A DNA stretch of 60,110 nt from a virus (IMGVR_UViG_2541047874_000004); one strand, 5' to 3'. Positions 22,420 to 47,547 are shown, counted from the stretch's first letter. A program made the numbers and translations. The notes: generated by a model from the sequence alone, not told the origin.

Positions 22420-22640
22420 TTACGGGTCCTTTCCGGTGATCCGACAGGTTACGGGGCGGCGACCTCGCGGGTTTTCGCTATTTATGAAAATTTTCCGGTT
22501 TAAGGCATTTCCGTTCTTCTTCGTCGTAACTTAATGTTTTTATTTAAAATACCCCCTGAAAAGAAAGGAAACGACAGGTGCTGAAAACGAGCTTTTGGGC
22601 CTCTGTCGTTTCCTTTCTCTGTTTTTGTCCGTGGAATGAA
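22420..22640. promoter_or_regulatory. Helper prophage cos region (cosQ-cosN-cosB) with the lambda cohesive-end sequence
   Basis: ACGGGTCCTTTCCGGTGATCCGACAGGTTACG-GGGCGGCGACCT-CGCGGGTTTTCGCTATTTATGAAAATTTTCCGG matches recalled lambda cos; the 12-nt cohesive end lies at about 22454..22465, just upstream of the Nu1 gene. Confidence 0.8.
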
Positions 22641-22642
22641 CA

Positions 22643-23162
22643 ATGGAAGTCAACAAAAAGCAGCTGGCTGAAATTTTCGGTGCGAGTATCCGTACCATTC
22701 AGAACTGGCAGGAGCAGGGAATGCCCGTTCTGCGAGGCGGTGGCAAGGGTAATGAGGTGCTTTATGACTCTGCCGCCGTCATAAAATGGTATGCCGAAAG
22801 GGATGCTGAAATTGAGAACGAAAAGCTGCGCCGGGAGGTTGAAGAATTACGGCTGGCCAGCGAGGCAGATCTTCACCCCGGAACACTTGAATTTGAGCGC
22901 CATCGCCTGACTCGTGCTCAGGCGACGGCGCAGGAACTGAAAAATGCCAAAGAATCGGCTGAAGTGGTGGAAACCGCATTCTGTACTTTCGTGCTGTCGC
23001 GTATAGCAAGGGAAATATCCAGTATTCTCGACGGTATTCCTCTGTCGGTGCAGCGACGTTTTCCTGAGCTGGATAACCGGCATATTGATTTCCTGAAACG
23101 GGATATCATCAAAGCCATGAACAAAGCAGCCGCGCTGGATGAACTGATACCGGGGTTGCTGA

Positions 23163-23188
<26 letters not shown>
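22643..23188 (+). CDS. nohQ: Terminase small subunit (lambda Nu1-like)
   Basis: 181 aa MEVNKKQLAEIFGASIRTIQNWQEQGMPVLRGGGKGNEVLYDSAAVIKWY..., near-identical to recalled lambda Nu1. Confidence 0.9.
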
Positions 23189-26869
<3,681 letters not shown>

Positions 26870-26889
<20 letters not shown>

Positions 26890-28189
26890 TCTCCCGCATA
26901 TTGCCAGCATGGCCTTTAATGAGCCGCTGATGCTTGAACCCGCCTATGCGCGGGTTTTCTTTTGTGCGCTTGCAGGCCAGCTTGGGATCAGCCGCCTGAC
27001 AGATGCGGTGTCCGGTGACAGCCTGACTGCCCCGGAGGCACCCGCGACGCTGGCGTTATCCGGTGATGATGACGGACCACGACAGGCCCGCAGTTATCAG
27101 GTCATGAACGGCATCGCCGTGCTGCCGGTTTACGGCACGCTGGTCAGCCGGACGCGGGCGCTGCAGCCGTATTCGGGGATGACCGGTTACAACGGCATTA
27201 TCGCCCGTCTGCAACAGGCTGCCAGCGACCCGATGGTGGACGGCATTCTGCTCGATATGGACACGCCCGGCGGGATGGTGGCGGGGGCATTTGACTGCGC
27301 TGACATCATCGCCCGCGTGCGTGACATAAAACCTGTATGGGCGCTGGCCAACGACATGAACTGCAGTGCAGGTCAGCTGCTTGCCAGCGCCGCCTCCCGG
27401 CGTCTGGTCACGCAGACCGCCCGGACAGGCTCCATCGGCGTCATGATGGCTCACAGTAATTACGGTGCTGCGCTGGAGAAACAGGGCGTGGAAATCACGC
27501 TGATTTACAGCGGCAGCCATAAGGTGGATGGCAACCCCTACAGCCATCTTCCGGATGACGTCCGGGAGACACTGCAGTCCCGGATGGATGCAACCCGCCA
27601 GATGTTTGCGCAGAAGGTGTCGGCATATACCGGCCTGTCCGTGCAGACTGTGCTGGATACCGAGGCTGCAGTGTACAGCGGTCAGGAGGCCATTGATGCC
27701 GGACTGGCTGATGAACTTGTTAACAGCACCGATGCGATCACCGTCATGCGTGATGCACTGGATGCACGTAAATCCCGTCTCTCAGGAGGGCGAATGACCA
27801 AAGAGACTCAATCAACAACTGTTTCAGCCACTGCTTCGCAGGCTGACGTTACTGACGTGGTGCAAGCGACGGAGGGCGAAAACGCCAGCGCGGCGCAGCC
27901 GGACGTGAACGCGCAGATCACCGCAGCGGTTGCGGCAGAAAACAGCCGCATTATGGGGATCCTCAACTGTGAGGAGGCTCACGGACGCGAAGAACAGGCG
28001 CGCGTTCTGGCAGAAACCCCCGGAATGACCGTGGAAACGGCCCGCCGCATTCTGGCCGCAGCACCACAGAGTGCACAGGCGCGCAGTGACACTGCGCTGG
28101 ATCGTCTGATGCAGGGTGCACCGGCACCGCTGGCTGCAGGTAACCCGGCATCTGATGCCGTTAACGATTTGCTGAATACACCAGTGTAA
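26870..28189 (+). CDS. C: Minor capsid protein C / head protease (lambda gpC), GTG start
   Basis: 439 aa from GTG MTAELRNLPHIASMAFNEPL...; the ORF track shows an upstream extension from 26735. Confidence 0.85.
27794..28189 (+). CDS. Nu3: Scaffolding protein Nu3, nested in frame in the 3' end of C
   Basis: 131 aa from the internal ATG MTKETQSTTVSATASQ... to the C stop, as in lambda. Confidence 0.8.
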   Translation: MTKETQSTTVSATASQADVTDVVQATEGENASAAQPDVNAQITAAVAAENSRIMGILNCEEAHGREEQARVLAETPGMTVETARRILAAAPQSAQARSDTALDRLMQGAPAPLAAGNPASDAVNDLLNTPV

Positions 28190-28198
28190 GGGATGTTT

Positions 28199-28531
28199 AT
28201 GACGAGCAAAGAAACCTTTACCCATTACCAGCCGCTGGGCAACAGTGACCCGGCTCATACCGCAACCGCGCCCGGCGGATTGAGTGCGAAAGCGCCTGCA
28301 ATGACCCCGCTGATGCTGGACACCTCCACCCGTAAGCTGGTTGCGTGGGATGGCACCACCGACGGTGCTGCCGTTGGCATTCTTGCGGTTGCTGCTGACC
28401 AGACCAGCACCACGCTGACGTTCTACAAGTCCGGCACGTTCCGTTATGAGGATGTGCTCTGGCCGGAGGCTGCCAGCGATGAGACGAAAAAACGGACCGC
28501 GTTTGCCGGAACGGCAATCAGCATCGTTTAA
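28199..28531 (+). CDS. D: Head decoration protein D
   Basis: 110 aa [43 protein letters not shown]..., matches recalled lambda D. Confidence 0.9.
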
Positions 28532-28586: not shown

Positions 28587-28832
28587 ATGTCGATGTACAC
28601 AACCGCCCAGCTGCTGGCGGCAAATGAGCAGAAATTTAAGTTTGATCCGCTGTTTCTGCGTCTCTTTTTCCGTGAGAGCTATCCCTTCACCACGGAGAAA
28701 GTCTATCTCTCACAAATTCCGGGACTGGTAAACATGGCGCTGTACGTTTCGCCGATTGTTTCCGGTGAGGTTATCCGTTCCCGTGGCGGCTCCACCTCTG
28801 AATTTACGCCGGGATATGTCAAGCCGAAGCAC
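28587..28832 (+). pseudogene. E: Major capsid protein E, 5' fragment (first 82 codons) interrupted by the satellite insertion
   Basis: MSMYTTAQLLAANEQKFKFDPLFLRLFFRESYPFTTEKVYLSQIPGLVNMALYVSPIVSGEVIRSRGGSTSEFTPGYVKPKH matches lambda E up to KPKH, then diverges (LAWLSEAFV, stop at 28862). Confidence 0.9.
28822..28831. repeat. Left copy of the 10-bp direct repeat AGCCGAAGCA (putative attL core of the inserted satellite)
   Basis: Identical 10-mer at the other junction (39785..39794), both in the E reading frame. Confidence 0.7.
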
Positions 28833-28994
28833 TTAGCATGGCTTTCTGAGGCTTTCGTGTAGTTGCTGGTTTTTACACTTAATCTTTTGATAATAAAGAA
28901 TAAGTTTATCTGGCGCTTTCACTGAATTTTCCTCGTTATCTGTGTGTTGCAATCATCTCTGTATTGCAGCTTGTATTGCTTTTTGGGGCTAAAA

Positions 28995-30230
28995 ATGGCT
29001 GGCGAGAACAAACTGAGCGACAAAGCGCTTAAAGGATATCTGGGGAAACCCAGAGAAAAGCAGATCACCATTGCTGATGGAAAGGGGCTTTCTATTCGTG
29101 TGAGTACTAAAGGGGCTGTGAGCTTTGTTTTCTTCTACAGGTTAGCAGGTGGCCGGGCTGCTCCGGTCTGGCTAACGTTGGGTAAATATCCTGATATGTC
29201 ACTCAAACAGGCAAGGGAAAAGCGCGACGAGTGCCGTGGTTGGTTGGCTGACAAACGTGATCCGCGTATCCAGATTAAGATTCAGGCTGAAGAACGCTTA
29301 AAGCCGGTCACAGTGGAGGATGCACTAAATTACTGGTATGAAAATTACTGTAAGGTGCGTCGTAAAACTCATGCTGTAACGCTTGGCAGATTTCGAAAGC
29401 ATATCTTTCCCTATATCGGTCATTTGCCCGTAAATGACACTCACCTATATGAATGGCTGGACTGTTTTGACCGAATTAAACGTAATGCACCAGTTATGGC
29501 GGCGTATGTTTTTTCTGACACTAAATTAGCTCTTCGTTTTTGTCGGGTACGCCAGTACGCGACGTGTGATGCTTTAAAGGATTTGCGCATGAGTGATGTG
29601 GGGCAGATTGCAGGTAAGCGAGATCGGGTTCTGGATGAAGCCGAACTCGGCCAGCTCTGGAAGGCAATTTTTGTCGAGCCTGATTTAAAACTAATGTCTG
29701 AATACACGCGAAAAATGTTTGTGCTTTGTACAGTATTTGGATGTCGAATGAGTGAAGCCCGATTATCAGAATGGAGCGAATGGGATCTCGAAAGTTGGGT
29801 TTGGACTGTACCAAAAGATCACTCAAAAACTGGTGTTGAAATCGTCAGACCAGTACCTGAAATTCTACGACAGTGGGTAACGGATGTTCACGAAGAGACA
29901 AAACATACTGGTTATGTGCTGGGAAGTCTGCGAATTAGAGAAAGCGTAAGCAAGATTGGGGGGAAAATCGGTAAACGTTTGGGCCATGAAAAACAATGGT
30001 CACTACACGACCTTAGAAGAACGCTATCTACTCATCTAAGTGATCTCGGTGTTGAATTTTATGTAGTAGAACAACTGTTAGGCCATGCGCTACCTGGCGT
30101 GGCAGGTGTTTACAATCGGAGTAAGTTTATGGCTAAAAAACTGGATGCTCTGGAACTCTGGACTACATATCTCAATAGCATCGCAGGTGCTGATTCAAAA
30201 GTGACAATCCTCAAACAAAAGGCTGGTTAA
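28995..30230 (+). CDS. Satellite tyrosine integrase (P4-type)
   Basis: About 411 aa from MAGENKLSDKALKGY...; arm-binding-type N-terminus and C-terminal catalytic region (HDLRRTLSTHL...LLGHA...VYNRSKF). Confidence 0.85.
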   Translation: MAGENKLSDKALKGYLGKPREKQITIADGKGLSIRVSTKGAVSFVFFYRLAGGRAAPVWLTLGKYPDMSLKQAREKRDECRGWLADKRDPRIQIKIQAEERLKPVTVEDALNYWYENYCKVRRKTHAVTLGRFRKHIFPYIGHLPVNDTHLYEWLDCFDRIKRNAPVMAAYVFSDTKLALRFCRVRQYATCDALKDLRMSDVGQIAGKRDRVLDEAELGQLWKAIFVEPDLKLMSEYTRKMFVLCTVFGCRMSEARLSEWSEWDLESWVWTVPKDHSKTGVEIVRPVPEILRQWVTDVHEETKHTGYVLGSLRIRESVSKIGGKIGKRLGHEKQWSLHDLRRTLSTHLSDLGVEFYVVEQLLGHALPGVAGVYNRSKFMAKKLDALELWTTYLNSIAGADSKVTILKQKAG

Positions 30231-30231
30231 C

Positions 30232-30459
30232 ATGAAAAAAATGGCAATTGTTGATAAAAAGGGTCTGGAGTACATTCCTAACATTGATCGTATGATCCGT
30301 GAGAAAGAATGTCGGGAGCTAACCACTCTTGCGAACAGCACACGCTGGAAGCTGGAGAAGGAAGGAAAATTTCCTAAGCGGATCAAGATTGGCGCTACTG
30401 CGGTAGCTTACCGTCTCTCCGAAGTTCAGGCATGGATTAGGGGGGAATGGCGGACATAA
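30232..30459 (+). CDS. alpA: AlpA-family transcriptional regulator
   Basis: 75 aa with the AlpA-type HTH (ECRELTTLANSTRWKLEKEGKFPKRIKIGATAVAYRLSEVQAWI) directly after int, as in PICI/P4-like satellites. Confidence 0.75.
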   Translation: MKKMAIVDKKGLEYIPNIDRMIREKECRELTTLANSTRWKLEKEGKFPKRIKIGATAVAYRLSEVQAWIRGEWRT

Positions 30460-30495
30460 ATGTTGTAGTAAATTGTTATATAAAAGGGTGTAAGC

Positions 30496-31371
30496 ATGGC
30501 TACTCGAAAAAAAAATAGCGTAGAAATGAAAACTGTTTGTGAACTAATCATATCAAGAGATGATATGAAAGATAAAATTCAAGACAGAATTCAAAAAGGA
30601 TTATTACTCCTACAGAAAAGCATAAATAACAATAGTGACTTGGAGCTGTTTAATGCTGATTACAGGAAATGGAGTGATTTTAATGCTGAGCTACTGAAGC
30701 GTAGTTTCACAAATGATGATTTCAAAGAAGAATATGAAGGTGGGGCATTTGGTGTTATTTCATTGTACGAGACTTCCTTGGGAGAAAAAATCAGTGAGGC
30801 TACGCGTAAACTCCAGAGTAAGATAAGAAAACTAGAGTCGATTATGGAGCGACTGGAGTTAATTCCTATATCTTCCAAAGTTGTTGAAGAAAATATTGAA
30901 GTACCTCAGAGTTCAGCGGTAAAAACCAAAAAGGTATTCATTGTTCATGGAAGAGATGAAATATCAAAAACCAACTTAGAAGTGTTTTTAAGAGAAATTG
31001 GCTTAGAACCTATTGTTCTCCATAGGCAAGCTGATGTAGGTCAGACAGTGATTGAGAAATTTGAAGCAAATAGTGATGTTGGTTTCGCATTCATTCTTCT
31101 CACACCTGATGAGATCGCTTATTTATTGCCGCAAGACTCTTTACCTGATAATGAAAGAGAAAAGGAGTTACGTGCACGACCAAATGTAATGTTTGAATTT
31201 GGTTATTTCGTAGGGAAATTAGGTCGTTCTAAGGTTTGTTGTCTATACACAGGTGATGTAGTGATTCCAAGTGATTTGAATGGTCTTATTTATAAAAAAT
31301 TCAATTCTTCTATTGAAGAAGTAGCATATAGCATTATTAAAGACTTGCGAGCTACTGGTTACGCAGTTTAG
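30496..31371 (+). CDS. TIR-like nucleotide-binding domain protein (Cap12/PycTIR-type C-terminal domain) with coiled-coil N-terminal domain; candidate anti-phage effector
   Basis: C-terminal KKVFIVHGRDEISKTNLEVFLREIGLEPIVLHRQADVGQTVIEKFEANSDVGFAFILLTPDE...RARPNVMFEFGYFVGKLGRSKVCCLYTGDVVIPSDLNGLIY fits the recalled TIR-like family signature; no cyclase or partner gene adjacent. Confidence 0.65.
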   Translation: MATRKKNSVEMKTVCELIISRDDMKDKIQDRIQKGLLLLQKSINNNSDLELFNADYRKWSDFNAELLKRSFTNDDFKEEYEGGAFGVISLYETSLGEKISEATRKLQSKIRKLESIMERLELIPISSKVVEENIEVPQSSAVKTKKVFIVHGRDEISKTNLEVFLREIGLEPIVLHRQADVGQTVIEKFEANSDVGFAFILLTPDEIAYLLPQDSLPDNEREKELRARPNVMFEFGYFVGKLGRSKVCCLYTGDVVIPSDLNGLIYKKFNSSIEEVAYSIIKDLRATGYAV

Positions 31372-31400
31372 TAAATTCTTTGAACTAAAAATCTGCATAG

Positions 31401-31434
31401 ATATAGAGCCATTCGAGATAAATGGCTCTATATG
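31401..31434. terminator. Bidirectional terminator-like hairpin between convergent satellite genes
   Basis: ATATAGAGCCATT-CGAGATAA-ATGGCTCTATAT inverted repeat. Confidence 0.5.
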
Positions 31435-31446
31435 AAATATTATCTG

Positions 31447-31626
31447 TTAAATTTTGACTTCATATCCGCGTTGCTGTAGTTCTTTGCGAATAATCCTTTT
31501 AATCCAGGCTGCTAAAGATTCGTCTCCATCTACTTGCTGTGCTTGCTCCATCAACTCCCTCAACTCAGGATCTAACCGAAACTGGAACGGAGGATTACCA
31601 CGTCTTTGATTTTTGTGTGTTGACAC
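31447..31626 (-). CDS. Small ribbon-helix-helix-like regulator (tentative; GTG start)
   Basis: Hand translation of the minus strand: VSTHKNQRRGNPPFQFRLDPELRELMEQAQQVDGDESLAAWIKRIIRKELQQRGYEVKI; RHH-like pattern (FQFRLDPELRE...SLAAWIKRII); divergent from the operator-like inverted repeat. Confidence 0.35.
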   Translation of the reverse strand: MSTHKNQRRGNPPFQFRLDPELRELMEQAQQVDGDESLAAWIKRIIRKELQQRGYEVKI

Positions 31627-31680
31627 GTCAATTACACCCGATGTAATGTGTTAATGTGTGATGACACATTACATACGTGT
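31621..31680. promoter_or_regulatory. Operator-like inverted repeats in the satellite divergent promoter region
   Basis: ATGTAATGTG ... CACATTACAT inverted repeat between the tentative RHH gene and the rightward replication operon. Confidence 0.4.
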
Positions 31681-31756
31681 TTAGGAAAATGCAACGCCTC
31701 GACGTGCGGGAACACCATCGAGGCGTCTAACCAACCCGTTAAATGAGGTAACGATT

Positions 31757-32122
31757 ATGGCTGGAACACAGCATACCCAAACTCACCCTAAATTTATATA
31801 CACCTTTCTGGCACTACACCACGACCGCATGGCAGATGGAGCAACTACGGTACATGTAGCCGCTGACACGCTGGTTGATGCCCGCAAGATGGTTAAGGAG
31901 ATGGGCTATACTGCGGCTTTCTGGAAAGGGCGTGAAGAAAACACGCTGTTTATTCAGAAATGCGAAAACAATTTCATCTGGCGTTTTATCGCCCTGAGCA
32001 CCGCACAACCACGCGTAATACACATCGAGGCCGCCAGCGAACAGGAAGCCCGGCTGCAATCCCCAACTGGCTACGTGATGATATTCGCCGCCCGTATTCG
32101 TCAGGAGGTGTGCCATGAATGA
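31757..32122 (+). CDS. Hypothetical satellite protein
   Basis: 121-aa ORF with an upstream GAGGT ribosome-binding site; first gene of the rightward operon leading to the primase. Confidence 0.5.
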   Translation: MAGTQHTQTHPKFIYTFLALHHDRMADGATTVHVAADTLVDARKMVKEMGYTAAFWKGREENTLFIQKCENNFIWRFIALSTAQPRVIHIEAASEQEARLQSPTGYVMIFAARIRQEVCHE

Positions 32123-32339
32123 TCTTTATTTTAAAGTGCTGACACATGCTGAAAACGCGCTCGTTTGTGGCAAAAATATGCGAGAAATCTTATCAACCTG
32201 GCTTGATGGGACAACAAATGCGGAACACGATGAACGGGATGCTAATTTAGCTGGAGCGTTAATTACGTTACTTGATCCTGTCATCAAAGAGCTGGATGAA
32301 GCTATAAAAATACACGACCAGAGCTATACCGGAGAATAA
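32115..32339 (+). CDS. Hypothetical satellite protein
   Basis: 74-aa ORF, translationally coupled (ATGAATGA overlap). Confidence 0.45.
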   Translation: MNDLYFKVLTHAENALVCGKNMREILSTWLDGTTNAEHDERDANLAGALITLLDPVIKELDEAIKIHDQSYTGE

Positions 32340-32342
32340 AAA

Positions 32343-32630
32343 ATGAAAAATAAATTTTCTGGCTTTATTGCCAGCGGTCAAACTCATTCAAAAATCAGCC
32401 TTGGGGATATTTTCAAAGACAGCTATGGCTATCGGGTAAAGATTATTTCGGTTGATGATCGTCGTGTCTCTTATTTGCGTGATGGTTATGATTTTGAATG
32501 TGTTATGCCGCGTCAGCAGTTCGAAAGAGATTTCATTCTGGTAAAAAATTGCAAGACAGATAATCAGAGGCGTGCCGCAGGCTATATCCGTAAAATTCGG
32601 GCAATGTTAGTTGCCGGAGGTAACAAATGA
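32343..32630 (+). CDS. Hypothetical satellite protein
   Basis: 95-aa ORF, overlaps the primase start (ATGA). Confidence 0.45.
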   Translation: MKNKFSGFIASGQTHSKISLGDIFKDSYGYRVKIISVDDRRVSYLRDGYDFECVMPRQQFERDFILVKNCKTDNQRRAAGYIRKIRAMLVAGGNK

Positions 32631-34447
32631 AACGTGCTCCGAACTTAAAATACCAACCGCGCGACAAAATGACGGAAGTCATCATTTTTGCTGGCAGTGA
32701 TGCCTGGAGCCATGCAAAAGAATGGAATGAATGGGCAGGTAAGCATATTGCAGCAGATGATACACCACCAGTCATTCTGGGTACGGAACAACTGGAAAAC
32801 CTGGATGATATGCAAATTATCGATGAAGGCCGTCATTATGTGCGTGTTTATCGTGCCGGAAAGATTGCAGAGAAAAGTCTGACGAAGGTTGCGACATTAC
32901 TTGCTATTGCAGGCGTAAAGGAAGCACGTTGTTACCGTAGCTTTGTTGATCGAGAGCCTGAAGACTGGACTCCGCGCCTTGTCGGCCTAAAAGCTGAAGC
33001 GGAGCATGGGGAAAGTCTGGTGATTGAACTGCCAGTGAAGAAGGCAGAGCGCAAAAATGACGAGCGTGCTTCATCTTTGGCGTTGAATCAGATGGGGGCC
33101 AGCCAGCGCGGTGAAGTTCTCCTTGCACATTACGGCGGCGAACTGGCAATCAATGCCGACTCTGACACCGTTCATCATTACAACGGCGTTGTATGGGAGC
33201 CGGTTCAGGATAAAGAGTTACAGCGTGCTATGGCGCAGATTTTCATTGATGCGGAGATCAGCTATTCGCAGAACGCTATTAAATCGGCGGTAGATACCAT
33301 GAAGTTAAGTTTGCCTGTAATGGGGAATACAGCCCGTAACCTGATTGGATTCAGTAACGGGGTATTTGATACCAGAACTGGTAATTTTCGGGAGCATAAC
33401 AAAAACGACTGGTTGTTAATTGCCAGTGAATTACCTTTCAGTCCACCAGCAGAGGGGGAAACGCTGGCAACACATGCGCCGAATTTCTGGAAGTGGTTGC
33501 GCCGTTCGGTGGCTGAGAATGACCGCAAGGCAGATCGCGTACTGGCGGCATTATTCATGGTGCTGGCGAACCGGTACGACTGGCAGTTATTCATTGAGGT
33601 AACAGGGCCGGGGGGAAGTGGTAAAAGTGTGATGGCGGAGATTTGCACCATGCTGGCGGGTAAGGCTAATACAGTATCAGCAAGCATGAAGGCGCTGGAA
33701 GATGCAAGGGAACGTGCGTTAGTGGTTGGCTTTTCGCTGATTATCATGCCGGATATGACCCGCTACGCTGGTGATGGGGCAGGGATTAAGGCCATTACAG
33801 GCGGTGACAAGGTGGCAATTGACCCGAAACACAAAGCCCCCTATTCAACGCGTATTCCGGCAGTAGTGCTGGCGGTTAACAATAACGCCATGTCATTCAG
33901 TGACCGCAGCGGGGGGATCTCACGTCGTCGGGTGATATTCAATTTTTCGGAAGTTGTACCGGAGAACGAACGCGATTCGATGCTGGCGGAAAAAATAGAA
34001 GGTGAGCTGGCGGTAGTGATTCGCCATCTGCTTACACGGTTTGCTGATCAGGACGAAGCCAGACGCCTGTTATATGAGCAGCAGAAATCTGAAGAAGCAC
34101 TGGCGATAAAGCGAGAGGGGGATTCGCTGGTGGACTTCTGCGGCTATCTCATGGCATCGGTAATGTGTGATGGCCTGTTAGTGGGTAATGCTGAAATTGT
34201 GCCATTCAGCCCACGCAGGTATCTCTATCATGCCTATCTGGCTTATATGAGGGCACATGGGTTTGGTAAACCTGTAACACTGACGCGCTTCGGTAAAGAT
34301 ATGCCGGGGGCAATGGCGGAATATGGCAGGGAGTATATGAAACGGAAAACGAAGCACGGTTTGCGTTCAAACGTGACACTGACGGAGGAATCAGAAGACT
34401 GGATGCCATCATGTGTATCGGTCACTAATGACGATAGCAAAAATTAA
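32627..34447 (+). CDS. Primase/replicative helicase (P4 alpha-like, D5_N plus P-loop NTPase)
   Basis: 606 aa; Walker A GPGGSGKS, Walker B-like LIIMPDM; cognate TGTTCACC iterons immediately downstream. Confidence 0.8.
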   Translation: MKRAPNLKYQPRDKMTEVIIFAGSDAWSHAKEWNEWAGKHIAADDTPPVILGTEQLENLDDMQIIDEGRHYVRVYRAGKIAEKSLTKVATLLAIAGVKEARCYRSFVDREPEDWTPRLVGLKAEAEHGESLVIELPVKKAERKNDERASSLALNQMGASQRGEVLLAHYGGELAINADSDTVHHYNGVVWEPVQDKELQRAMAQIFIDAEISYSQNAIKSAVDTMKLSLPVMGNTARNLIGFSNGVFDTRTGNFREHNKNDWLLIASELPFSPPAEGETLATHAPNFWKWLRRSVAENDRKADRVLAALFMVLANRYDWQLFIEVTGPGGSGKSVMAEICTMLAGKANTVSASMKALEDARERALVVGFSLIIMPDMTRYAGDGAGIKAITGGDKVAIDPKHKAPYSTRIPAVVLAVNNNAMSFSDRSGGISRRRVIFNFSEVVPENERDSMLAEKIEGELAVVIRHLLTRFADQDEARRLLYEQQKSEEALAIKREGDSLVDFCGYLMASVMCDGLLVGNAEIVPFSPRRYLYHAYLAYMRAHGFGKPVTLTRFGKDMPGAMAEYGREYMKRKTKHGLRSNVTLTEESEDWMPSCVSVTNDDSKN

Positions 34448-34454
34448 ACTTATG

Positions 34455-34695
34455 GAATAACTGTTCACCACTGTTCACCCTGTCATAAATATCTTTTATA
34501 TCAGTATATTATAGGGTGAACAGTTATTTATGAACTGTTCACCAAACTATTCACTGTTCACCTTTTTGATTGTTTATTGAGCTTCAAGGGTGAACAGTGG
34601 TGAACAGTTGGTGAATAGTTTTTGTGAAACTGTTCACCCATTAACATTATGAATTAAAAGAGAAAATATCAAAAGGTGAACAGGTGAAGGGTTAA
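34455..34695. repeat. Satellite replication origin: about 9-10 copies of the octamer TGTTCACC / GGTGAACA in both orientations
   Basis: Seen directly (for example CTGTTCACCACTGTTCACC, GGTGAACAGTGGTGAACAG); P4 ori/crr are built from TGTTCACC iterons bound by alpha (recalled). Confidence 0.75.
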
Positions 34696-34734
34696 AACGC
34701 AAAAATTTTAATTTACTGCTGTGAGATAAAGCCT

Positions 34735-34980
34735 ATGACAGCGAAGCACACAAAAAAATCACAATCGCACGCCCTTGATTTGACGGAACACTGGTTAAGG
34801 GTGTCGATAAAAATCATCGACCGCAACGCCGGGGAAGGATACGCGAAAGCACATCCCGAACTGATTAGCGCATTCATGACAACGGCGGCTGCAAACTTTG
34901 CCACTCTGACCGAACGGGAGATTGCTGAAGCGGAGGAAGTGACAACAATCAATATTAAGTCCGGAGAGCAGGCAGCATGA
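34735..34980 (+). CDS. Hypothetical satellite protein
   Basis: 81-aa ORF; ATGA overlap with ssb. Confidence 0.45.
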   Translation: MTAKHTKKSQSHALDLTEHWLRVSIKIIDRNAGEGYAKAHPELISAFMTTAAANFATLTEREIAEAEEVTTINIKSGEQAA

Positions 34981-35426
34981 CGGCGCAAATATCAGTTTAC
35001 GGGCGGTTGGTGGACGACCCGCAGACAAAACAGACCAGCAAGGGCACCCCCATGACGCTGGCGCGTATGGCGGTATCACTGCCCTGCAGTCAGTCGGATG
35101 ACGGTCAGGCGACGATGTGGTTATCTGTCCTGGCGTTTGGCAGACAAGCCGACGCGCTGGCAAAGCATCACAAAGGCGAACTCCTGAGCGTGGCGGGTAA
35201 TATGCAGGTGAGCCAGTGGACTGGACAGAACGGTGAAACGCGGCAGGGCTGGCAGGTTATCGCAGACAGCGTAATCAGTGCGCGAACGGTGCGACCGGGC
35301 GGCAAAAAAGGTCAACAGGGTCAGGCTACTGACGCACTGAACAGAGCAAAACAACAGGCAGATCAGCAAGGAAGCCATCCACCAGTGGGAGATAATGAAC
35401 AATGGGGAGATGATATTCCGTTTTAA
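34977..35426 (+). CDS. ssb: Single-stranded DNA-binding protein
   Basis: 149 aa; OB-fold-like N-terminus, Gly/Gln-rich linker and C-terminal acidic tail ending DDIPF. Confidence 0.8.
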   Translation: MTAQISVYGRLVDDPQTKQTSKGTPMTLARMAVSLPCSQSDDGQATMWLSVLAFGRQADALAKHHKGELLSVAGNMQVSQWTGQNGETRQGWQVIADSVISARTVRPGGKKGQQGQATDALNRAKQQADQQGSHPPVGDNEQWGDDIPF

Positions 35427-35643
35427 ATATTGCCAATAAAAAAGGCCGGAAAAAAATAAATTTTCCGGCATGCTACATAAATCCCGACCAAAGGGAGTGA
35501 AGATATTAACACTAATTATCCGCGCTGAAGTTGTTATCCCAAAACTTTATACAACATTGCACTCGGTTGCATGTATTCGCATGACAAATATCGGTGATAG
35601 CATATATCCACAATTATTTTTAATGAATGCAAAGAGGATGCGT

Positions 35644-36684
35644 ATGGTTGATTTATATTCGCCTACCCAGCTTGTACAGGTGGTTAATGCTGTAGATGTA
35701 CAAAAACAACTAAATGCGTTGTTTACCAGTTTGTTTTTTACTCGCTCGGTAATGTTTGAATCGCGCGATATTATTCTTGATACAATCGACGATCCAAATA
35801 TCCCAATTGCAGCGTTTTGTTCTCCTATGGTGGGTAGTAAAGTTTCACGTGACGAAGGGTACGAATCAAAAACAATTCGTCCAGGCTATATGAAGCCGAA
35901 AAGCAGCATTGATCCAAATAAGTTAGCTGTGCGCCCTGCTGGTGTATCACCTGAGCAATACAATGCTTTTGGAGCGCGTAATATTAAAGTTAAACAGGCG
36001 ATTGTAAATCAGGCTAAAGCTATTCGTACACGTATTGAATGGCTTGCCGTTCAGGCAATCACAACGGGGAAAAATATCATTGAGGGCGATGGTATTGAAC
36101 GTTATGAGCTGGACTGGAATATTAAACCACAAAATATCATCACTCAGTCTGGCGGTGCTGAGTGGTCAGGTAAGGATAAAGAAACTTTTGATCCAAATGA
36201 TGATATTGAGAGCTACGCAGAATTTAGTGAGGGCGTCACTAATATCATCATTATGGGCGGTAATGTATGGAAGAAATACCGTTCATTCAGAGCGATAAAA
36301 GAGGCTTTGGATACCCGTCGTGGTTCTAATTCCGAACTGGAAACGGCTCTTAAAGACCTTGGTGATTCGGTGAGTTTTAAAGGGTATATGGGCGATGTTG
36401 CGATTGTTGTATACAGCGGGCGTTATACCGACGAGGACGGAACTGAAAAACATTTCCTTGATCCTGATTTGATGGTGCTTGGCAATACGGCTCTTCAGGG
36501 GATTGTCGCCTATGGCGGTATTCAGGATCCGGAGCTAATCCGAATGGGGCTGACTAAAGCCGAACTTGCACCGAAAAACTATATTGTGCCTGGTGATCCG
36601 GCTATTGAATATGTGCAGACACATTCAGCACCACAGCCAATACCGGCCCGCATCAATCGTTTTGTTACCGTTCGCATTGGCTAA
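35644..36684 (+). CDS. Satellite-encoded major capsid protein homolog (lambda E-like)
   Basis: Aligns along its length with the helper E protein (for example ITQSGGAEWSGKDKETFDPNDDIESYA vs ITQSGGTQWSQRDKSTYDPTDDIEAYA; LDTRRGSNSELETALKDLGDSVSFKGYMGDVAIVVYSG vs LDTRRGSHSELETAVKDLGKAVSYKGMYGDVAIVVYSG). Start chosen at the ATG after the AAGAGGA ribosome-binding site; the ORF track extends to 35470. Confidence 0.8.
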   Translation: MVDLYSPTQLVQVVNAVDVQKQLNALFTSLFFTRSVMFESRDIILDTIDDPNIPIAAFCSPMVGSKVSRDEGYESKTIRPGYMKPKSSIDPNKLAVRPAGVSPEQYNAFGARNIKVKQAIVNQAKAIRTRIEWLAVQAITTGKNIIEGDGIERYELDWNIKPQNIITQSGGAEWSGKDKETFDPNDDIESYAEFSEGVTNIIIMGGNVWKKYRSFRAIKEALDTRRGSNSELETALKDLGDSVSFKGYMGDVAIVVYSGRYTDEDGTEKHFLDPDLMVLGNTALQGIVAYGGIQDPELIRMGLTKAELAPKNYIVPGDPAIEYVQTHSAPQPIPARINRFVTVRIG

Positions 36685-36693
36685 GGGGGAGCA

Positions 36694-37035
36694 ATGGCTA
36701 CTCATTACACTGAACTCATGGCTGGCACTGAAGCACTGGTGACTACGCTGGGGATATTTTCAGCTAATAAAGGGGTAATTCCTGCATTTACGCCACTGAT
36801 GCAGGAAGATGCAACAGGTGCACTGGTGGTATGGGATGGTTCGAGCGTAGGTAAAGCGGTTTATGTTTCCGCTGTACAAATCGACACCGCGAAAAAAACA
36901 CAGGCTCAGGTCTATAAGACAGGTGTCTTAAATGTTGATGCTCTGAACTGGCCTGAGTCTGTAAAAGAACTGTCAGTAAAGATTGCAGCGTTTGTTGGCT
37001 CAGGTATTTCTGTTCAGCCGCTGGCTCGTGTGTAA
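36694..37035 (+). CDS. Putative head decoration protein (lambda D-like)
   Basis: 113 aa; shares the TPLM...LVVWDG...KTG...WPE...GISV pattern with gpD and is adjacent to the E-like gene; the homology is weak. Confidence 0.5.
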   Translation: MATHYTELMAGTEALVTTLGIFSANKGVIPAFTPLMQEDATGALVVWDGSSVGKAVYVSAVQIDTAKKTQAQVYKTGVLNVDALNWPESVKELSVKIAAFVGSGISVQPLARV

Positions 37036-37046
37036 AGGGGGATACA

Positions 37047-37430
37047 ATGCAGAATGATTACAATGACCTTAAGCCAATTGCCGAAATGATGTACCCGAAT
37101 CCAGCTGTAGAGGAATTAAAAGCTATCGCTGACAAAATGTGTTTAAGCGAGCGCCTTGTTGATATGAATCAGGTGATGGAAATTACAACCCTGAGTCGGC
37201 GTACACTGCTAAACCTTGAGGCTAGTGGAGAGTTCCCGGAGCGTGTGCAGGTTACGGAAGGGCGTAAGGCCTGGTATTTAAGTGAAGTGATCGACTGGAT
37301 AAATAATATTCCTCGCGCTTCTGAATATTGCCGCGTACCTGTCCCAAAAAAGCCAGATGCGGCGCTATGCCTCAAGATTGAGCGTGTACGCCGCAATGCA
37401 CGGGATGGTCGCTATAAGCTGATTGGTTGA
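37047..37430 (+). CDS. AlpA-like HTH-domain protein
   Basis: 127 aa with MNQVMEITTLSRRTLLNLEASGEFPERVQVTEGRKAWYLSEVIDWINN; ribosome-binding site AGGGGGA upstream. Confidence 0.55.
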   Translation: MQNDYNDLKPIAEMMYPNPAVEELKAIADKMCLSERLVDMNQVMEITTLSRRTLLNLEASGEFPERVQVTEGRKAWYLSEVIDWINNIPRASEYCRVPVPKKPDAALCLKIERVRRNARDGRYKLIG

Positions 37431-37456
37431 TGAAATTAGGGCCCGCTCTGGCTGGC

Positions 37457-37530
37457 GGGTCCTTTCCGGCGATCCGGCAGGCTACGGGGCGGAAGGCGCG
37501 CGGGTTTTCGCTATTTATGAGCATTTTAAG
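37457..37530. promoter_or_regulatory. Satellite cos-like site with an altered cohesive-end sequence
   Basis: CGGGTCCTTTCCGGCGATCCGGCAGGCTACG-GGGCGGAAGGCG-CGCGGGTTTTCGCTATTTATGAGCATTTT; flanks are conserved with the helper cos, 6 substitutions fall inside the 12-nt cohesive-end segment. Confidence 0.7.
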
Positions 37531-37646
37531 GGGACTGGTGGTGGTTTTGTTGTTCGCTATATCTGTATGAATAATAAGAGAAAAATACAATCAATACACC
37601 AACCTGAAACAGTAATTAAGTTGTGGTATCAATGAAATTACACCTG

Positions 37647-38174
37647 ATGAACAAAAAAAACATGGCAAAAAGTTGCCGTGTAAGCGCCACTGCGTTCGAT
37701 AAGTGGGGAGTGATTCCCGTCGAGCGTAAGGGCCGTGAGGCGTTCTATGATGTTGCCAGTGTAATAGATAATCGGGTTAACAATGCAATCAGCCAGATTA
37801 CAAACGAAACGGGCGATATTGATGACGATGAACTTTTACGCGTCAGGATCAGATTACTGACAGCACAGGCAGAGGCGCAGGAGCTTAAAAACGAGCGCGA
37901 ACGCGGCGACGTTATTGATACAGAGTTTTGTATGTATGTTCTTTCCAAACTGGCGAGTCAGATTTCATCTATCATGGACAGCCTGCCGCTTACCATGCAA
38001 AGGCGCTTCCCACAGATGACTCCGGCTATGCTGGATGGACTTAAAAAGGAAGTGGCTAAAGCCTGTAATGCCAGTGCCGGCGTTGCTGACAACCTCCCAC
38101 AGATACTGGCTGATTATCTGATGGAAAGTACAGGAAACGTACCGGATAAGTTGCAGCTGAATAAGGATAAGTAA
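37647..38174 (+). CDS. Terminase small subunit-like protein (Nu1 C-terminal homology, divergent N-terminal DNA-binding domain)
   Basis: C-terminal half aligns with helper Nu1 (TAQAEAQELKNERERGDVIDTEFCMYVLSKLASQISSIMDSLPLTMQRRFPQ vs TRAQATAQELKNAKESAEVVETAFCTFVLSRIAREISSILDGIPLSVQRRFPE); the N-terminus differs. Start uncertain (ATG at 37632, 37647 or 37662). Confidence 0.7.
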   Translation: MNKKNMAKSCRVSATAFDKWGVIPVERKGREAFYDVASVIDNRVNNAISQITNETGDIDDDELLRVRIRLLTAQAEAQELKNERERGDVIDTEFCMYVLSKLASQISSIMDSLPLTMQRRFPQMTPAMLDGLKKEVAKACNASAGVADNLPQILADYLMESTGNVPDKLQLNKDK

Positions 38175-38185
38175 CGTAGTACGCT

Positions 38186-38461
38186 ATGACTGAATCCGAA
38201 CTACTGAAAGTAATCTGCCATGCTGGTGGAGTCAGCCACCAGCATGACGAACAGACCACGCAGCCGGGCAGTGTCACCGCTGAAAATTACGCTCGTGTGG
38301 TTGCTGAGGTTATGTGGCGTGACGGTATAGAACTGAACGGACAGGATTGCTTAGTCATCCGCACCAAAGTGGTGGCTATACTGGCAGCTAGGCGGAGGCA
38401 GGGACAACGCCAGAACGTTGCATCGTACCAGTGGAAGAAGCCTGACAGACTGCGGCGATAA
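38186..38461 (+). CDS. Hypothetical satellite protein
   Basis: 91-aa ORF after the TerS-like gene. Confidence 0.4.
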   Translation: MTESELLKVICHAGGVSHQHDEQTTQPGSVTAENYARVVAEVMWRDGIELNGQDCLVIRTKVVAILAARRRQGQRQNVASYQWKKPDRLRR

Positions 38462-38863
38462 CTCTTTGATTTTCTCGACGGCCCCAAAATGGGCCTTACC
38501 ATAGCCAGCTAATAAATGAGCAAGCCTCAAAAGTGAGGTTTGTGGCCGTTTGGCCTATTCATATGCTAACTCGTTGATATTCCTGACGACGCAAATTTAC
38601 GCCTTGTGGCTGGTAGTCGAATTGCAAATTTGCAACTCAACTATGAAACTACAGGTAGTTTGGGTAGTAAAAGCAACACACTGATTTTGGGGCTTCTTCG
38701 CGATACCTAATATTATGGTATCGGTGGAAGAGATATCGTTTCTCATAGGTTAGCACCGAGGGCGGAGTTCCGCCCTCATCGAAAAATTGCTTACGAGTCG
38801 TCAAAATAAATTAATCGACTGAGTATAATGATTAACTAATTGCTCGTGTTACTTCATTATACG

Positions 38864-39625
38864 TTATTTCCCATCTTTAAGGTTTAACCAAGTGTTAATT
38901 AAAAAAAGAGCCATTGAGCCTGATAAATTTACTGCAAGTTCGGCATGCCTTGGGGATGGCTTAATTGATGAGCTGTTCGTTCCATGTGCATCACCGAGTT
39001 TATTACGAAGAGTACCTAACCCATTTACAACTGCAGAACAACCGCCGAGAATTTGTTTGAAGATATTTTCAGTATGTTGGTCGGCAGATAGGTTAAGTTC
39101 TTTTGAAAGAGTTTTATAAAGCTCTGACATTTCAATATTTTTATTATTATACTGAATGCCCATATCATCAAGAATGTGTTTGCAAACTGTTTCAAGAAGT
39201 GTTCTTGCGGAGGTTATCGCACCATCCGGATCTGTATGGCGCCGTTCAAGTGCTTTTATCCAAACGGCGTGGACTCCATCCTCGTTAAACTTTCTTAATA
39301 CATCAGATATGTCTTCATCCGCTGGAGCTTTATTTTTCCCTTCTAGATAATCCAGCATCGGCTGAAATGCCTTATAAATCAAATCTCTCCGGGGGGCATA
39401 CTTTTCAGTCTTTTTTATAAATCCCCAAAATTCTTTTAGTGAGCGATTAGTTCTCACAAACTCTGGTAATAGCTGATGTAAAGGAGGATTTTGTAAGAAA
39501 TATGTTCTTAGAAGCAAATAATCATTATTAGCTTCATCCTGGGCTCCTGTAGCTCTTGCAATTAGTATGTTTTGAAGCGCTACTGCGCGCTCTAGGTCAT
39601 TTTGAAGGGTATCTATAATATTCAT
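38864..39625 (-). CDS. Abortive-infection-like protein with Abi_C-type C-terminal domain; candidate defense cargo
   Basis: 253 aa; C-terminal GLGTLRNKLGDAHGT...PSPRHAELAVNLSGSMALFLINTWL fits the recalled Abi C-terminus signature; opposite strand to the rest of the element, at its right end. Confidence 0.55.
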   Translation of the reverse strand: MNIIDTLQNDLERAVALQNILIARATGAQDEANNDYLLLRTYFLQNPPLHQLLPEFVRTNRSLKEFWGFIKKTEKYAPRRDLIYKAFQPMLDYLEGKNKAPADEDISDVLRKFNEDGVHAVWIKALERRHTDPDGAITSARTLLETVCKHILDDMGIQYNNKNIEMSELYKTLSKELNLSADQHTENIFKQILGGCSAVVNGLGTLRNKLGDAHGTNSSSIKPSPRHAELAVNLSGSMALFLINTWLNLKDGK

Positions 39626-39784
39626 AACAAATCTTTATTCACTTCATTTGTGGGTTGATAATTGAATGGTTTGTACATTGATTTCTGTGTATTGCAGTGT
39701 GTATTGCAACATAGCCATTCAGGTAGAGATTATGCTCTATTTTTCCTCTTATATCATTCACATACTTACACCATTGACTCATGT

Positions 39785-39794
39785 AGCCGAAGCA
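39785..39794. repeat. Right copy of the 10-bp direct repeat AGCCGAAGCA (putative attR core)
   Basis: Identical to 28822..28831; E resumes in frame immediately here. Confidence 0.7.
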
Positions 39795-40575
39795 TGAAGT
39801 GAATCCGCAGATGACCCTGCGTCGCCTGCCGGATGAAGATCCGCAGAATCTGGCGGACCCGGCTTACCGCCGCCGTCGCATCATCATGCAGAACATGCGT
39901 GACGAAGAGCTGGCCATTGCTCAGGTCGAAGAGATGCAGGCCGTTTCTGCCGTGCTTAAGGGCAAATACACCATGACCGGTGAAGCCTTCGATCCGGTTG
40001 AGGTGGATATGGGCCGCAGTGAGGAGAATAACATCACGCAGTCCGGCGGCACGCAGTGGAGCCAGCGTGACAAGTCCACGTATGACCCGACCGACGATAT
40101 CGAAGCCTACGCGCTGAACGCCAGCGGTGTGGTGAATATCATCGTGTTCGATCCGAAAGGCTGGGCGCTGTTCCGTTCCTTCAAGGCCGTCAAGGATAAG
40201 CTGGATACCCGTCGCGGCTCTCATTCCGAGCTGGAGACAGCGGTGAAAGACCTGGGCAAAGCGGTGTCCTATAAGGGAATGTATGGCGATGTGGCCATCG
40301 TCGTGTATTCCGGACAGTACGTGGAAAACGGCGTCAAAAAGAACTTCCTGCCGGACAACACGATGGTGCTGGGGAACACTCAGGCACGCGGTCTGCGCAC
40401 CTATGGCTGCATTCAGGATGCGGACGCACAGCGCGAAGGCATTAACGCCTCTGCCCGTTACCCGAAAAACTGGGTGACCACCGGCGATCCGGCGCGTGAG
40501 TTCACTATGATTCAGTCAGCACCGCTGATGCTGCTGGCTGACCCTGATGAGTTCGTGTCCGTACAACTGGCGTAA
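39787..40575 (+). pseudogene. E: Major capsid protein E, 3' fragment (resumes at ...PKHEVNPQMTLRR)
   Basis: Matches recalled lambda E from EVNPQMTLRRLPDEDPQNLADPAYRRRR to the C-terminus DPDEFVSVQLA; no ATG or ribosome-binding site of its own (the ORF track begins at GTG 39799). Confidence 0.9.
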
Positions 40576-40616
40576 TCATGGCCCTTCGGGGCCATTTTCT
40601 CTCTGTGGAGGAGTCC

Positions 40617-41015
40617 ATGACGAAAGATGAACTGATTGCCCGTCTTCAGGTGCTGGGTGAGCAACTGAACCGTGATGTCAGCCTGACGGGGACGAAAGAA
40701 GAACTGGCACTCCGTGTGGCAGAGCTGGAAGAGGAGCTTGATGACACGGATGAAACTGCCGGTCAGGACACCCCTCTCAGCCGGGAAAATGTGCTGACCG
40801 GACATGAAAATGAGGTGGGATCAGCGCAGCCGGATACCGTGATTCTGGATACGTCTGAACTGGTCACGGTCGTGGCACTGGTGACGCTGCATACCGATGC
40901 ACTTCACGCCACGCGGGATGAACCTGTGGCATTTGTGCTGCCGGGAACGGCGTTTCGTGTCTCTGCCGGTGTGGCAGCCGAAATGACAGAACGTGGCCTG
41001 GCCAGAATGCAATAA
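40617..41015 (+). CDS. FI: DNA-packaging protein FI
   Basis: MTKDELIARLQVLGEQLNRDVSLTGTKEELALRVAELEEELDDTDETAGQ... matches recalled lambda FI. Confidence 0.9.
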   Translation: MTKDELIARLQVLGEQLNRDVSLTGTKEELALRVAELEEELDDTDETAGQDTPLSRENVLTGHENEVGSAQPDTVILDTSELVTVVALVTLHTDALHATRDEPVAFVLPGTAFRVSAGVAAEMTERGLARMQ

Positions 41016-41026
41016 CGGGAGGCGCT

Positions 41027-41380: not shown

Positions 41381-41391
41381 AAGGGGGATGT

Positions 41392-42362: not shown

Positions 42363-42369
42363 GGACGCT

Positions 42370-43110: not shown

Positions 43111-43125
43111 TCTGGGGAGTCAGAG

Positions 43126-47542: not shown

Positions 47543-47547
47543 ATCCC

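Follow-up and report, generated by a model that had tools for sequence, protein, structure and literature searches.

The residence of a satellite within its helper's capsid gene is already known: Tommasini, Mageeney and Williams (NAR Genom Bioinform 2023; PMC10111431) reported the helper-embedded PICI (HE-PICI; PICI, phage-inducible chromosomal island) "11capE" at the site E:Phage_cap_E:80, and mapped 491 HE-PICIs, 201 of them at this site (PMC10111431). These elements have, in order, an Integration zone (int, alpA), a Bro zone, a Replication zone (pri, SSB, DUF5906, ori), and a Late zone (captured late genes), and those at the E site carry two co-oriented doubled motifs tgTGTATTGCantgTGTATTGCa on either side of the attP centre, upstream at 81 +/- 2 bp and downstream at 132 +/- 2 bp (PMC10111431). 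For the prototype, qPCR and deep sequencing after mitomycin C treatment revealed the circle junction predicted for attP and, in E, the restored attB; upon SOS induction, the composite excised as a whole and replicated, and the satellite was precisely excised about 1 h later, restoring E, with excision from 42-98% of the copies by 2-3 h (PMC10111431). Virions or plaques of the prototype pair were not recovered by the authors (PMC10111431); thus, transfer and a true helper relationship are putative even for the prototype.

Here we analysed a stretch of 60,110 bp (IMGVR_UViG_2541047874_000004; hereafter, the window), for which a preliminary description had supposed that no satellite with an attB in a helper structural gene had been described. 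This was wrong, since E codon 80 is the commonest site of the published HE-PICI class (PMC10111431). The insert in the window is almost certainly an HE-PICI of the E:Phage_cap_E:80 group, closely related to the prototype Eco567.11capE and located in E of an otherwise complete lambdoid prophage, and nothing in this analysis contradicted the assignment.

Interruption of gene E and the attachment sites

By direct reading of the window and recomputation, the lambda-type gene E (start ATG at 28587) was found to be split at codon 82 by an insert of about 11 kb: the first 82 codons are kept to position 28832, ending ...PGYVKPKH, and are followed by 10 foreign codons and a stop at 28860-28862. The 10-bp block AGCCGAAGCA has exactly two copies in the window, 28822..28831 and 39785..39794 (one per junction), and no copy on the minus strand of the 60,110 bp; the element bounds were set at 28822-39794, from the first base of the left repeat to the last base of the right repeat. 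[quoted passage not shown] In-silico deletion of 28832..39794 (10,963 bp, comprising the insert and one copy of the repeat) gave ...AAG CCG AAG CAT GAA GTG AAT... and the full, uninterrupted E of 341 aa; precise restoration of E on excision holds, at the sequence level, for the copy in the window. The interruption with its foreign codons and stop, the direct repeat at both junctions, the rebuilt E, and the integrase gene beside the left junction (163 bp from it), all claimed in the preliminary description, were thus borne out.

The site has the features of E:Phage_cap_E:80, namely, a position near codon 80, a short identity block (AGCCGAAGCA or AACCCAAGCA), and an attP without a replacement 3' end of E. 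The identity block (agccgaagca) is listed 85 times in the supplement of PMC10111431, and, for the ~95 nt that the published attL alignment displays, the left arm has an identical sequence. The motif TGTATTGC occurs seven times in the window (both strands together), and four of the seven are the doubled-motif sites, whose spacing, measured from motif edge to core centre (an assumed convention), was 81.5 bp upstream and 131.5 bp downstream, in agreement with the published HE-PICI values. A tyrosine integrase recombined the satellite attP, the core of which lies between two doubled TGTATTGC motifs, with AGCCGAAGCA inside E, as the earlier claim of site-specific integration into a lambdoid gene E had it. 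E was split by this integration, which brought in no substitute for its 3' end.

The core of the insert-free prophage L001 (see below) is AACCCAAGCA versus AGCCGAAGCA, which had suggested an "escape allele", with synonymous changes blocking integration; this reading was rejected because AACCCAAGCA is the identity block of the prototype itself and many genomes have an integration at one or the other variant. A perfect inverted repeat of 11 nt between E right of the core (39794-39804) and the satellite right arm (39637-39647) was treated as chance, because it is absent from the right arm of the prototype and is uncompensated in L004, in which the E flank differs.

Gene content and relationship to known satellites

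The surrounding prophage occupies the E. coli Qin/ydfJ locus and extends from int (23-1300) as far as the tail fibres and ydfJ. Compared with L001, the helper late genes from Nu1 to J are all full length, with the exception of E, and the helper int, xis, Q, and lysis genes are intact. The satellite int, alpA, and pri lie on the same strand as helper Nu1 to J. The features assigned are summarized in Table 1.

Table 1. Features of the satellite and of the adjoining helper late region (positions in the window)
Feature	Position	Strand	Evidence
Helper cosN 12-mer GGGCGGCGACCT, upstream of helper Nu1	22454..22465	+	Exact lambda cosN match, the window's only one
Helper late genes Nu1, A, W, B, C, D, upstream of split E	22643..28531	+	Full-length tblastn matches to annotated genes of L001; Pfam Peptidase_S49 (C), HDPD (D)
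Helper E, 5' part (~82 codons), ending in attL core	28587..28831	+	100% identical to residues 1-82 of E in L001
attL copy of the 10-bp identity block AGCCGAAGCA	28822..28831		Same block listed for E_Phage_cap_E_80 HE-PICIs in the supplement of PMC10111431
Doubled motif tcTGTATTGCagctTGTATTGCt, attP downstream copy	28958..28980	+	Starts 131.5 bp from core centre
Satellite tyrosine integrase	28995..30230	+	Pfam Arm-DNA-bind_3, Phage_integrase; 99.8% aa identity to 11capE prototype integrase over 411 residues
AlpA (excisionase/regulator)	30232..30459	+	Pfam Phage_AlpA E = 6e-15; 96% identical to prototype
TIR-domain protein (PADLOC candidate system PDC-S35), cargo, variable region 1	30496..31371	+	Pfam CAP12-PCTIR_TIR E = 1e-33; PADLOC E = 7e-67
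Icd-like/repressor-like protein, Bro zone position	31757..32122	+	PHROG 1743/6196 "transcriptional repressor"; homologue annotated Icd-like
Two small conserved ORFs (74-aa protein, DUF4222 protein)	32115..32630	+	PHROG 2196; Pfam DUF4222
D5-type primase/helicase pri	32627..34447	+	Pfam D5_N, DUF5906, Pox_D5; 99.8% identical to prototype
Putative satellite origin, with iteron GGTGAACAGT present at least 11 times, some in each orientation	34441..34695		Downstream of pri, as described for GN-PICIs
81-aa conserved ORF and SSB	34735..35426	+	PHROG 1231; Pfam SSB
Satellite major capsid protein, gpE homologue, 346 aa	35644..36684	+	Pfam Phage_cap_E E = 5e-41; 41% identical to helper E
Satellite head-decoration protein, gpD homologue	36694..37035	+	Pfam HDPD E = 4e-15; 38% identical to helper D
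Second AlpA-family HTH protein	37047..37430	+	Pfam Phage_AlpA; PHROG 2790
Satellite cos-like site (cosQ/cosN region)	37456..37527	+	86% identical to helper 22423-22494
Nu1-family small terminase subunit, variable region 2	37632..38174	+	Pfam Phage_Nu1 E = 1e-24; PHROG 57; 37% identical to helper Nu1
91-aa ORF, function unassigned	38186..38461	+	PHROG 1561
Abi_C/AbiJ-like abortive-infection protein, cargo	38864..39625	-	Pfam Abi_C E = 1e-23; PADLOC AbiJ E = 2e-21
Doubled motif tgTGTATTGCagtgTGTATTGCa, attP upstream copy	39686..39708	+	Ends 81.5 bp before core centre
attR copy of AGCCGAAGCA	39785..39794		Exact repeat search
Helper E, 3' part, residues 80-341 (unique part from 39795)	39787..40575	+	Pfam; reconstruction; tblastn against L001

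The satellite genes follow the four-zone HE-PICI order (int-alpA; TIR and Icd-like genes; DUF4222-pri-ori-SSB; E-D-AlpA2-cos-Nu1), the Bro zone being assigned by position and the Icd-like gene only, as no Bro-N domain was found in the satellite by Pfam. Because the integrase is nearly identical to that of the prototype, no integrase tree was needed for its placement in the HE-PICI clade and the E-site subclade. The start codon of the satellite capsid gene was taken from the RefSeq annotation of the prototype, and the best PDB matches of its product were 3BQW (the closest; deposited as "Putative capsid protein of prophage") and lambda gpE 7VI9; no solved structure was related in sequence to the small-terminase homologue at E <= 0.001. 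At the cosN position, the satellite has the 12-mer GGGCGGAAGGCG, of which 5 of the 12 bases differ from the helper, and the likeness of the two cos regions is limited to the cosQ/cosN part, with no shared cosB. Families of tail or lysis genes were not detected in the insert. In the promoter/terminator scan, counts did not exceed those of shuffled sequence, and the sole use made of it was that no plus-strand terminator-like hairpin was seen from the E fragment to int.

The prototype 11capE (prophage 50icd, E. coli NRG857c) has the same E target codon, a 10-bp identity block, and the same doubled TGTATTGC spacing, and its integrase, primase, capsid, and decoration proteins are 99.8%, 99.8%, 99.7%, and 100% identical to those of the window. 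The common backbone (int, alpA, Icd-like, DUF4222, pri, ori, SSB, the E and D homologues, the second AlpA-like gene, and the cos-like site) is 99.3% identical at the nucleotide level over 5.6 kb. The two differ in the core (AGCCGAAGCA in the window versus AACCCAAGCA in the prototype, both listed in the supplement of PMC10111431), in the helper locus (Qin/ydfJ versus icd), and in the length of the cos-like stretch shared with the helper (72 bp versus 258 bp reported for the prototype pair). In variable region 1, the TIR (PDC-S35) gene is present in the window and in H1 and absent from the prototype; in variable region 2, the window has a complete Nu1-like terS, the 91-aa ORF, and the AbiJ-like gene, whereas the prototype has a 64-aa ORF, the first codons of which match the start of helper Nu1, together with HEPN and DUF262 genes. 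As an element, the copy in the window is set apart from the prototype only by swapped cargo modules and the complete small-terminase gene.

As for the Gram-negative (GN) PICIs in general, the 10,963-bp insert (10-20 kb expected) has int, alpA, pri, ori iterons, and a cos-like site, and it shares with elements such as EcCICFT073 (Fillol-Salom et al. 2018, PMC6092414) the size of ~11 kb, the unidirectional int-alpA-pri-ori-late order, a cos-type site, a lambdoid helper, and a capsid-E homologue. However, the classical GN-PICIs are located in chromosomal genes away from the helper and act in trans only, whereas the element in the window lies inside a helper late gene. The capsid-forming PICIs (cf-PICIs; bioRxiv 10.1101/2022.09.08.507074) likewise have their own capsid-shell protein and small terminase and are reported to encode all proteins for making and filling capsids; by contrast, the satellite in the window has only the E homologue, the D homologue, and TerS, and no portal, protease/scaffold, head-tail connector, or large terminase was found in it with Pfam and PHROG. 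With P4 it has in common an integrase of the same broad clade (PMC10111431), an AlpA-family regulator, a D5/alpha-type primase, and helper cos packaging, but the helper in the window is lambdoid and not P2-like, and no homologues of Psu, Sid, or Delta were found (Pfam, PHROG). A P4-type immunity RNA (C4/isrK, CI RNA) was also sought, with no Rfam match at the gathering threshold or at E <= 1. Rfam otherwise gave sub-threshold noise only, from symR and two miRNA models falling on the iteron origin.

Expected course of excision and the alternatives

Since the satellite is co-oriented with the late operon, intact helper E can be formed only once the satellite has left. Q-antiterminated helper late transcription may read through Nu1-A-W-B-C-D-E' into int and alpA; such read-through would place satellite excision in the late phase and hold back the synthesis of helper capsid. 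The excised satellite would then replicate from its pri/iteron origin and be packaged from its own cos by the helper large terminase gpA, guided by its own Nu1-like small subunit, into heads using the helper portal, protease/scaffold, and tails. The TIR (PDC-S35) and AbiJ-like genes are probably interchangeable defence-type cargo. The earlier proposal that capsid production depends on excision stands for intact helper E, but not for capsid proteins as a whole, because the full-length E and D homologues of the satellite (41% and 38% identical) make some capsid-type protein possible without excision.

An identical attL junction was found in 173 of 5,426 complete E. coli genomes, and in about 3,000 other complete E. 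coli genomes the alignment with the junction query, by homology to uninterrupted E, ended at 28831, where the repeat has its last base; the junction is therefore not due to chance, since so many alignments stop exactly there while the 173 genomes continue across. The same element was present in E of many prophages, as had been looked for, and an insert-free allele was also found: L001, a near-identical (99%) prophage of another E. coli at the same Qin/ydfJ locus, has an uninterrupted E. The exact mosaic of the window was in no complete E. coli genome (best, 93% coverage with 97% identity, or 89% with 99.4%); it is composed of the TIR module as in H1 and the backbone as in H33 and NRG857c. That a PICI contig was chimerically joined into a prophage contig is practically inconceivable, because 173 independent complete assemblies share the junction; moreover, the core is present at both junctions, removal of the insert restores a perfect ORF, and the junctions and excision products of the prototype were confirmed by deep-sequencing reads (PMC10111431). 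It is very unlikely that the island entered a decaying cryptic prophage by chance or off target and has no functional relationship with a helper in this strain. The Qin locus, at which the prophage lies, holds a defective prophage remnant in K-12, and pseudogenes and an IS fragment in the early region of L001 suggest that induction of the helper may be incomplete; a truncated look is shared by many HE-PICI helpers, and the prototype gave no virions (PMC10111431). Against a dead end, however, the site is identical in the 173 complete genomes and 201 published instances, the insert is co-oriented with a late operon that is full length except for E in a prophage with intact int, xis, Q, and lysis genes, the satellite cos-like site resembles that of the helper, and excision is active in the prototype (PMC10111431).

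A different role may be considered for the satellite late genes, in which the knockout of helper E is an anti-helper device more than a timing switch, and the diverged E and D, the private cos, and the small terminase build a satellite shell, possibly of another size, on the portal and scaffold of the helper. The full-length E and D homologues and the Nu1 homologue (37%) are in line with it, as are the cos-like site, which has just the cosQ/cosN part in common with the helper and 5 of 12 bases changed at the cosN overhang position, and the possibility, noted in PMC10111431, that the satellite copy backs up the broken gene. Nevertheless, we consider this interference unlikely: capsid genes are present in 21 of 29 reference GN-PICIs not embedded in E, the restoration of helper E by excision reaches 42-98% of prototype copies by 2-3 h, and the E. 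coli model PICI was reported to be packaged as phage-length concatemers, not in small heads (PMC10111431); a PICI with its capsid gene knocked out was still transferred (Fillol-Salom 2018, as that work is cited in PMC10111431), and no sequence feature predicts capsid size. It is decidedly unlikely that, for the variant bearing TerS, particles made before or without excision would consist of satellite shell proteins filled only with satellite DNA. If true, such a "capsid swap" would be a kind of helper interference with no demonstrated case among HE-PICIs so far.

Meaning for the HE-PICI family

A satellite lodged in its helper's gene for the capsid represents a cis-acting parasitism, in which the helper shell would wait on the departure of the parasite. 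Before 2022, this would have been a notable discovery; it now belongs to a documented class with measured excision kinetics, and the value of the window is confirmatory, as a clean, complete composite at a different locus (Qin/ydfJ), with an insert-free, near-isogenic prophage in another strain. The window also illustrates how defence cargo and packaging genes are exchanged as modules in the HE-PICI family, and a copy of this kind could address particle formation, the role of the satellite E and D, and the redirection of packaging by the small terminase.

The split gene E and its published counterparts

The lambda-type gene E of the helper (the lambdoid prophage of the window) starts at 28587 and reads 82 native codons (…PGYVKPKH), followed by ten foreign codons and a stop at 28860-28862; at the right junction, TAG (39784-39786) precedes the E frame, which reopens at 39787. 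The decamer AGCCGAAGCA lies at 28822-28831 (attL) and 39785-39794 (attR), and no other copy was found on either strand of the window. In silico removal of 28832..39794 (10,963 bp) gave …AAG CCG AAG CAT GAA GTG AAT…, a continuous E of 341 codons. The match to Pfam Phage_cap_E spans profile positions 1-78 for the left part of E and 94-328 for the right part, and the G+C content was about 0.58 in the late genes on either side versus 0.39-0.51 within the insert. The preliminary description had reported the split E, the 10-bp direct repeat and the E rebuilt by removing the insert with one repeat copy, and every element of this observation was confirmed. Its interpretation, site-specific integration of a satellite in the capsid gene, is supported.

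However, the suggestion that no such satellite had been described was not borne out. Helper-embedded phage-inducible chromosomal islands (HE-PICIs) are a published class with 491 members at 14 late-gene sites, of which 201 are at E:Phage_cap_E:80 (Tommasini, Mageeney and Williams 2023, PMC10111431). The prototype, the 11-kb PICI Eco567.11capE of E. coli NRG857c, is integrated in prophage 50icd, within the lambda-E-like capsid gene; it has an identity block of 10 bp, encodes a capsid homologue of its own and is oriented like the late genes (PMC10111431). When compared with the prototype sequence (NC_017634.1), the window element was 99.3% identical over 5.6 kb at the nucleotide level; amino acid identities were 99.8% (integrase), 96% (AlpA), 99.8% (primase), 99.3% (SSB), 99.7% (capsid), 100% (decoration protein) and 100% (second AlpA-like protein). 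The left arm equals the published attL alignment sequence over the approximately 95 nt displayed, and the block 'agccgaagca' occurs 85 times in the supplementary table (PMC10111431). The published distance of the diagnostic doubled motif tgTGTATTGCantgTGTATTGCa from the attP centre is 81 ± 2 bp on the upstream side and 132 ± 2 bp on the downstream side (PMC10111431); in the window, the motif was found at 39686-39708 and 28958-28980, with its edges 81.5 and 131.5 bp away from the centre of the core. The insert was assigned neither to the P4-like satellites (Pfam, PHROG, Rfam) nor to the cf-PICIs (Pfam, PHROG). The window element belongs to an already known class, the HE-PICIs, and occupies its commonest site.

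Gene content and cos-like site of the satellite

The gene content of the insert was determined from ORF calls, Pfam, PHROG and PADLOC, and no tail, lysis, portal, protease or large-terminase gene was found among its genes. The gene set is that of a Gram-negative PICI. The iteron array forms long imperfect palindromes and is probably the replication origin of the satellite; it also attracts spurious sub-threshold miRNA-precursor matches in Rfam. The best solved relatives of the satellite capsid homologue were 3BQW and lambda gpE 7VI9. Its mechanical ORF includes 58 extra codons (35470-35643) ahead of 35644, where annotations of relatives place the start (MVDLYSP…); these codons show no resemblance to gpE and are probably untranslated.

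Features of the insert and of the helper (window positions)
Feature	Coordinates	Location	Remarks
Tyrosine integrase with arm-binding domain		insert	
AlpA		insert	
TIR-domain protein		insert, first variable region	PADLOC candidate PDC-S35
Icd-like / repressor-like protein		insert	
Two small conserved ORFs, one DUF4222		insert	
D5-type primase/helicase		insert	
Putative origin	34441-34695 (255 bp)	insert, directly 3' of primase gene	at least 11 GGTGAACAGT iterons, both orientations
81-aa ORF and SSB		insert	
gpE homologue, full length		insert	41% identical to helper E
gpD homologue		insert	38% identical to helper D
Second AlpA-family protein		insert	
Nu1-family small terminase		insert, second variable region	37% identical to helper Nu1
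91-aa ORF		insert, second variable region	
AbiJ-like Abi_C protein		insert, second variable region	opposite strand
DicF RNA	4774-4825	helper	
dicA/dicB/dicC, relBE, pinQ		helper	
hokD with sok RNA	10277-10448	helper	
cspB/cspF/cspI, cspA-type thermoregulator leaders	17294-17686, 20196-20581	helper	
IS009 RNA match	56570-56768	helper side of window	

Comparison of 37456-38174 with 22423-23188 identified a cos-like stretch of 72 bp in the satellite, 86% identical to the helper cosQ/cosN region. At the position of the cosN overhang, the 12-mer is GGGCGGAAGGCG in the satellite (37487-37498) versus GGGCGGCGACCT in the helper (5 of 12 bases differ). Where the helper has cosB, the satellite has unrelated sequence and then a complete Nu1-family terS; no cosB is common to the two. 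In the prototype of NRG857c, yet another 12-mer, GGGCGTCAGGCG, is present and a helper-like cosB is retained; the cos common to satellite and helper is 258 bp in that pair (PMC10111431).

Insert-free relatives, alternative explanations and predicted life cycle

With a 351-bp query spanning the left junction, matches at a coverage of at least 80% were obtained in 173 of the 5,426 complete E. coli genomes. For about 3,000 further genomes, the alignment ended at query position 182 (window 28831, where the decamer ends), which on these alignments is the point where uninterrupted E alleles part from the window. In strain PRO_A-1407-6W-A_ESBL, to which the first 7 kb of the window is 100% identical, the prophage at the same Qin/ydfJ locus (99.05% identity over 33.9 kb) has an uninterrupted E where the window has the split one; comparison of this E with the reconstructed one gave 31 differences in 1,026 nt and 9 in 341 aa. 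Both the insert-free allele and the recurrent junction, for which a search had been proposed, were found. The core in the uninterrupted E of this near-identical, insert-free prophage (L001 28823-28832, corresponding to window 28822-28831) is a synonymous variant, AACCCAAGCA. Since both AGCCGAAGCA and AACCCAAGCA have been published as identity blocks of HE-PICIs (PMC10111431), the difference is regarded as a polymorphism, with no obvious resistance allele.

The helper (1-28586, 40576-60110) is a lambdoid prophage of full length that occupies the Qin locus, and its right end is followed by the 3' part of ydfJ. DicF RNA, the dic genes, relBE, hokD with sok RNA, the csp genes with their leaders and pinQ are familiar from the Qin remnant of K-12. 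Its late genes Nu1 through J, except E, and its int, xis, Q and lysis genes are full length. The part most diverged from L001 is the lom and side-tail-fibre region (52489-55000 versus L001 41509-45868), where lom is 86% identical, the tail fibre is alike at the N-terminus only and the distal fibre genes are unshared; this pattern suggests that a host-range module was exchanged between prophages that are nearly identical elsewhere.

An assembly chimera is excluded by the recurrence of the left junction in complete genomes, by the restoration of E on removal of the insert and by the excision junctions of the prototype seen by deep sequencing (PMC10111431). For this strain, a non-functional insertion in a decaying prophage is considered improbable, as the late operon is intact and the same site recurs. 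That the E, D, TerS and cos set of the satellite serves to interfere with the helper, as a capsid swap, is considered rather improbable.

The sequence shows a site-specific insertion of a satellite, which broke E without supplying a replacement end, lies in the orientation of the helper late operon and leaves E exactly restorable. No terminator-like hairpin was found on the plus strand from the E fragment to int in a promoter/terminator scan; read-through of the helper late transcript would drive satellite int and alpA. The satellite would then replicate from the pri/iteron origin, its cos would be packaged by helper gpA with the satellite small terminase, and its DNA would enter heads needing the helper portal, protease/scaffold, connectors and tails. 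According to evidence cited in PMC10111431, a PICI with a capsid-gene knockout still transfers. [quoted passage not shown]

Variation within the family

Homology to the prototype is interrupted at two cargo hot spots, 30451-31703 and 37528-39772. The first region contains the TIR gene in the window, as in EC190486, whereas the prototype has a hypothetical gene and a YlcI/YnfO-family gene. The second contains the complete Nu1-like terS, the 91-aa ORF and the AbiJ-like gene, likewise in EC190486 and STEC711, whereas the prototype, described as lacking terS (PMC10111431), has a 64-aa ORF with first codons matching the helper Nu1 start, and opposite-strand HEPN and DUF262 genes. The helper locus also differs (Qin/ydfJ versus icd). 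The cargo combination is a mosaic of modules found separately in EC190486 and STEC711. Both modules are common, and at least 80% of the element is present in 40 complete genomes, those of EC190486 and STEC711 among them; the exact mosaic was intact in no complete genome (best, 93% coverage at 97% identity, or 89% at 99.4%). The differences from the prototype are within-family variation and do not constitute a new kind of element.
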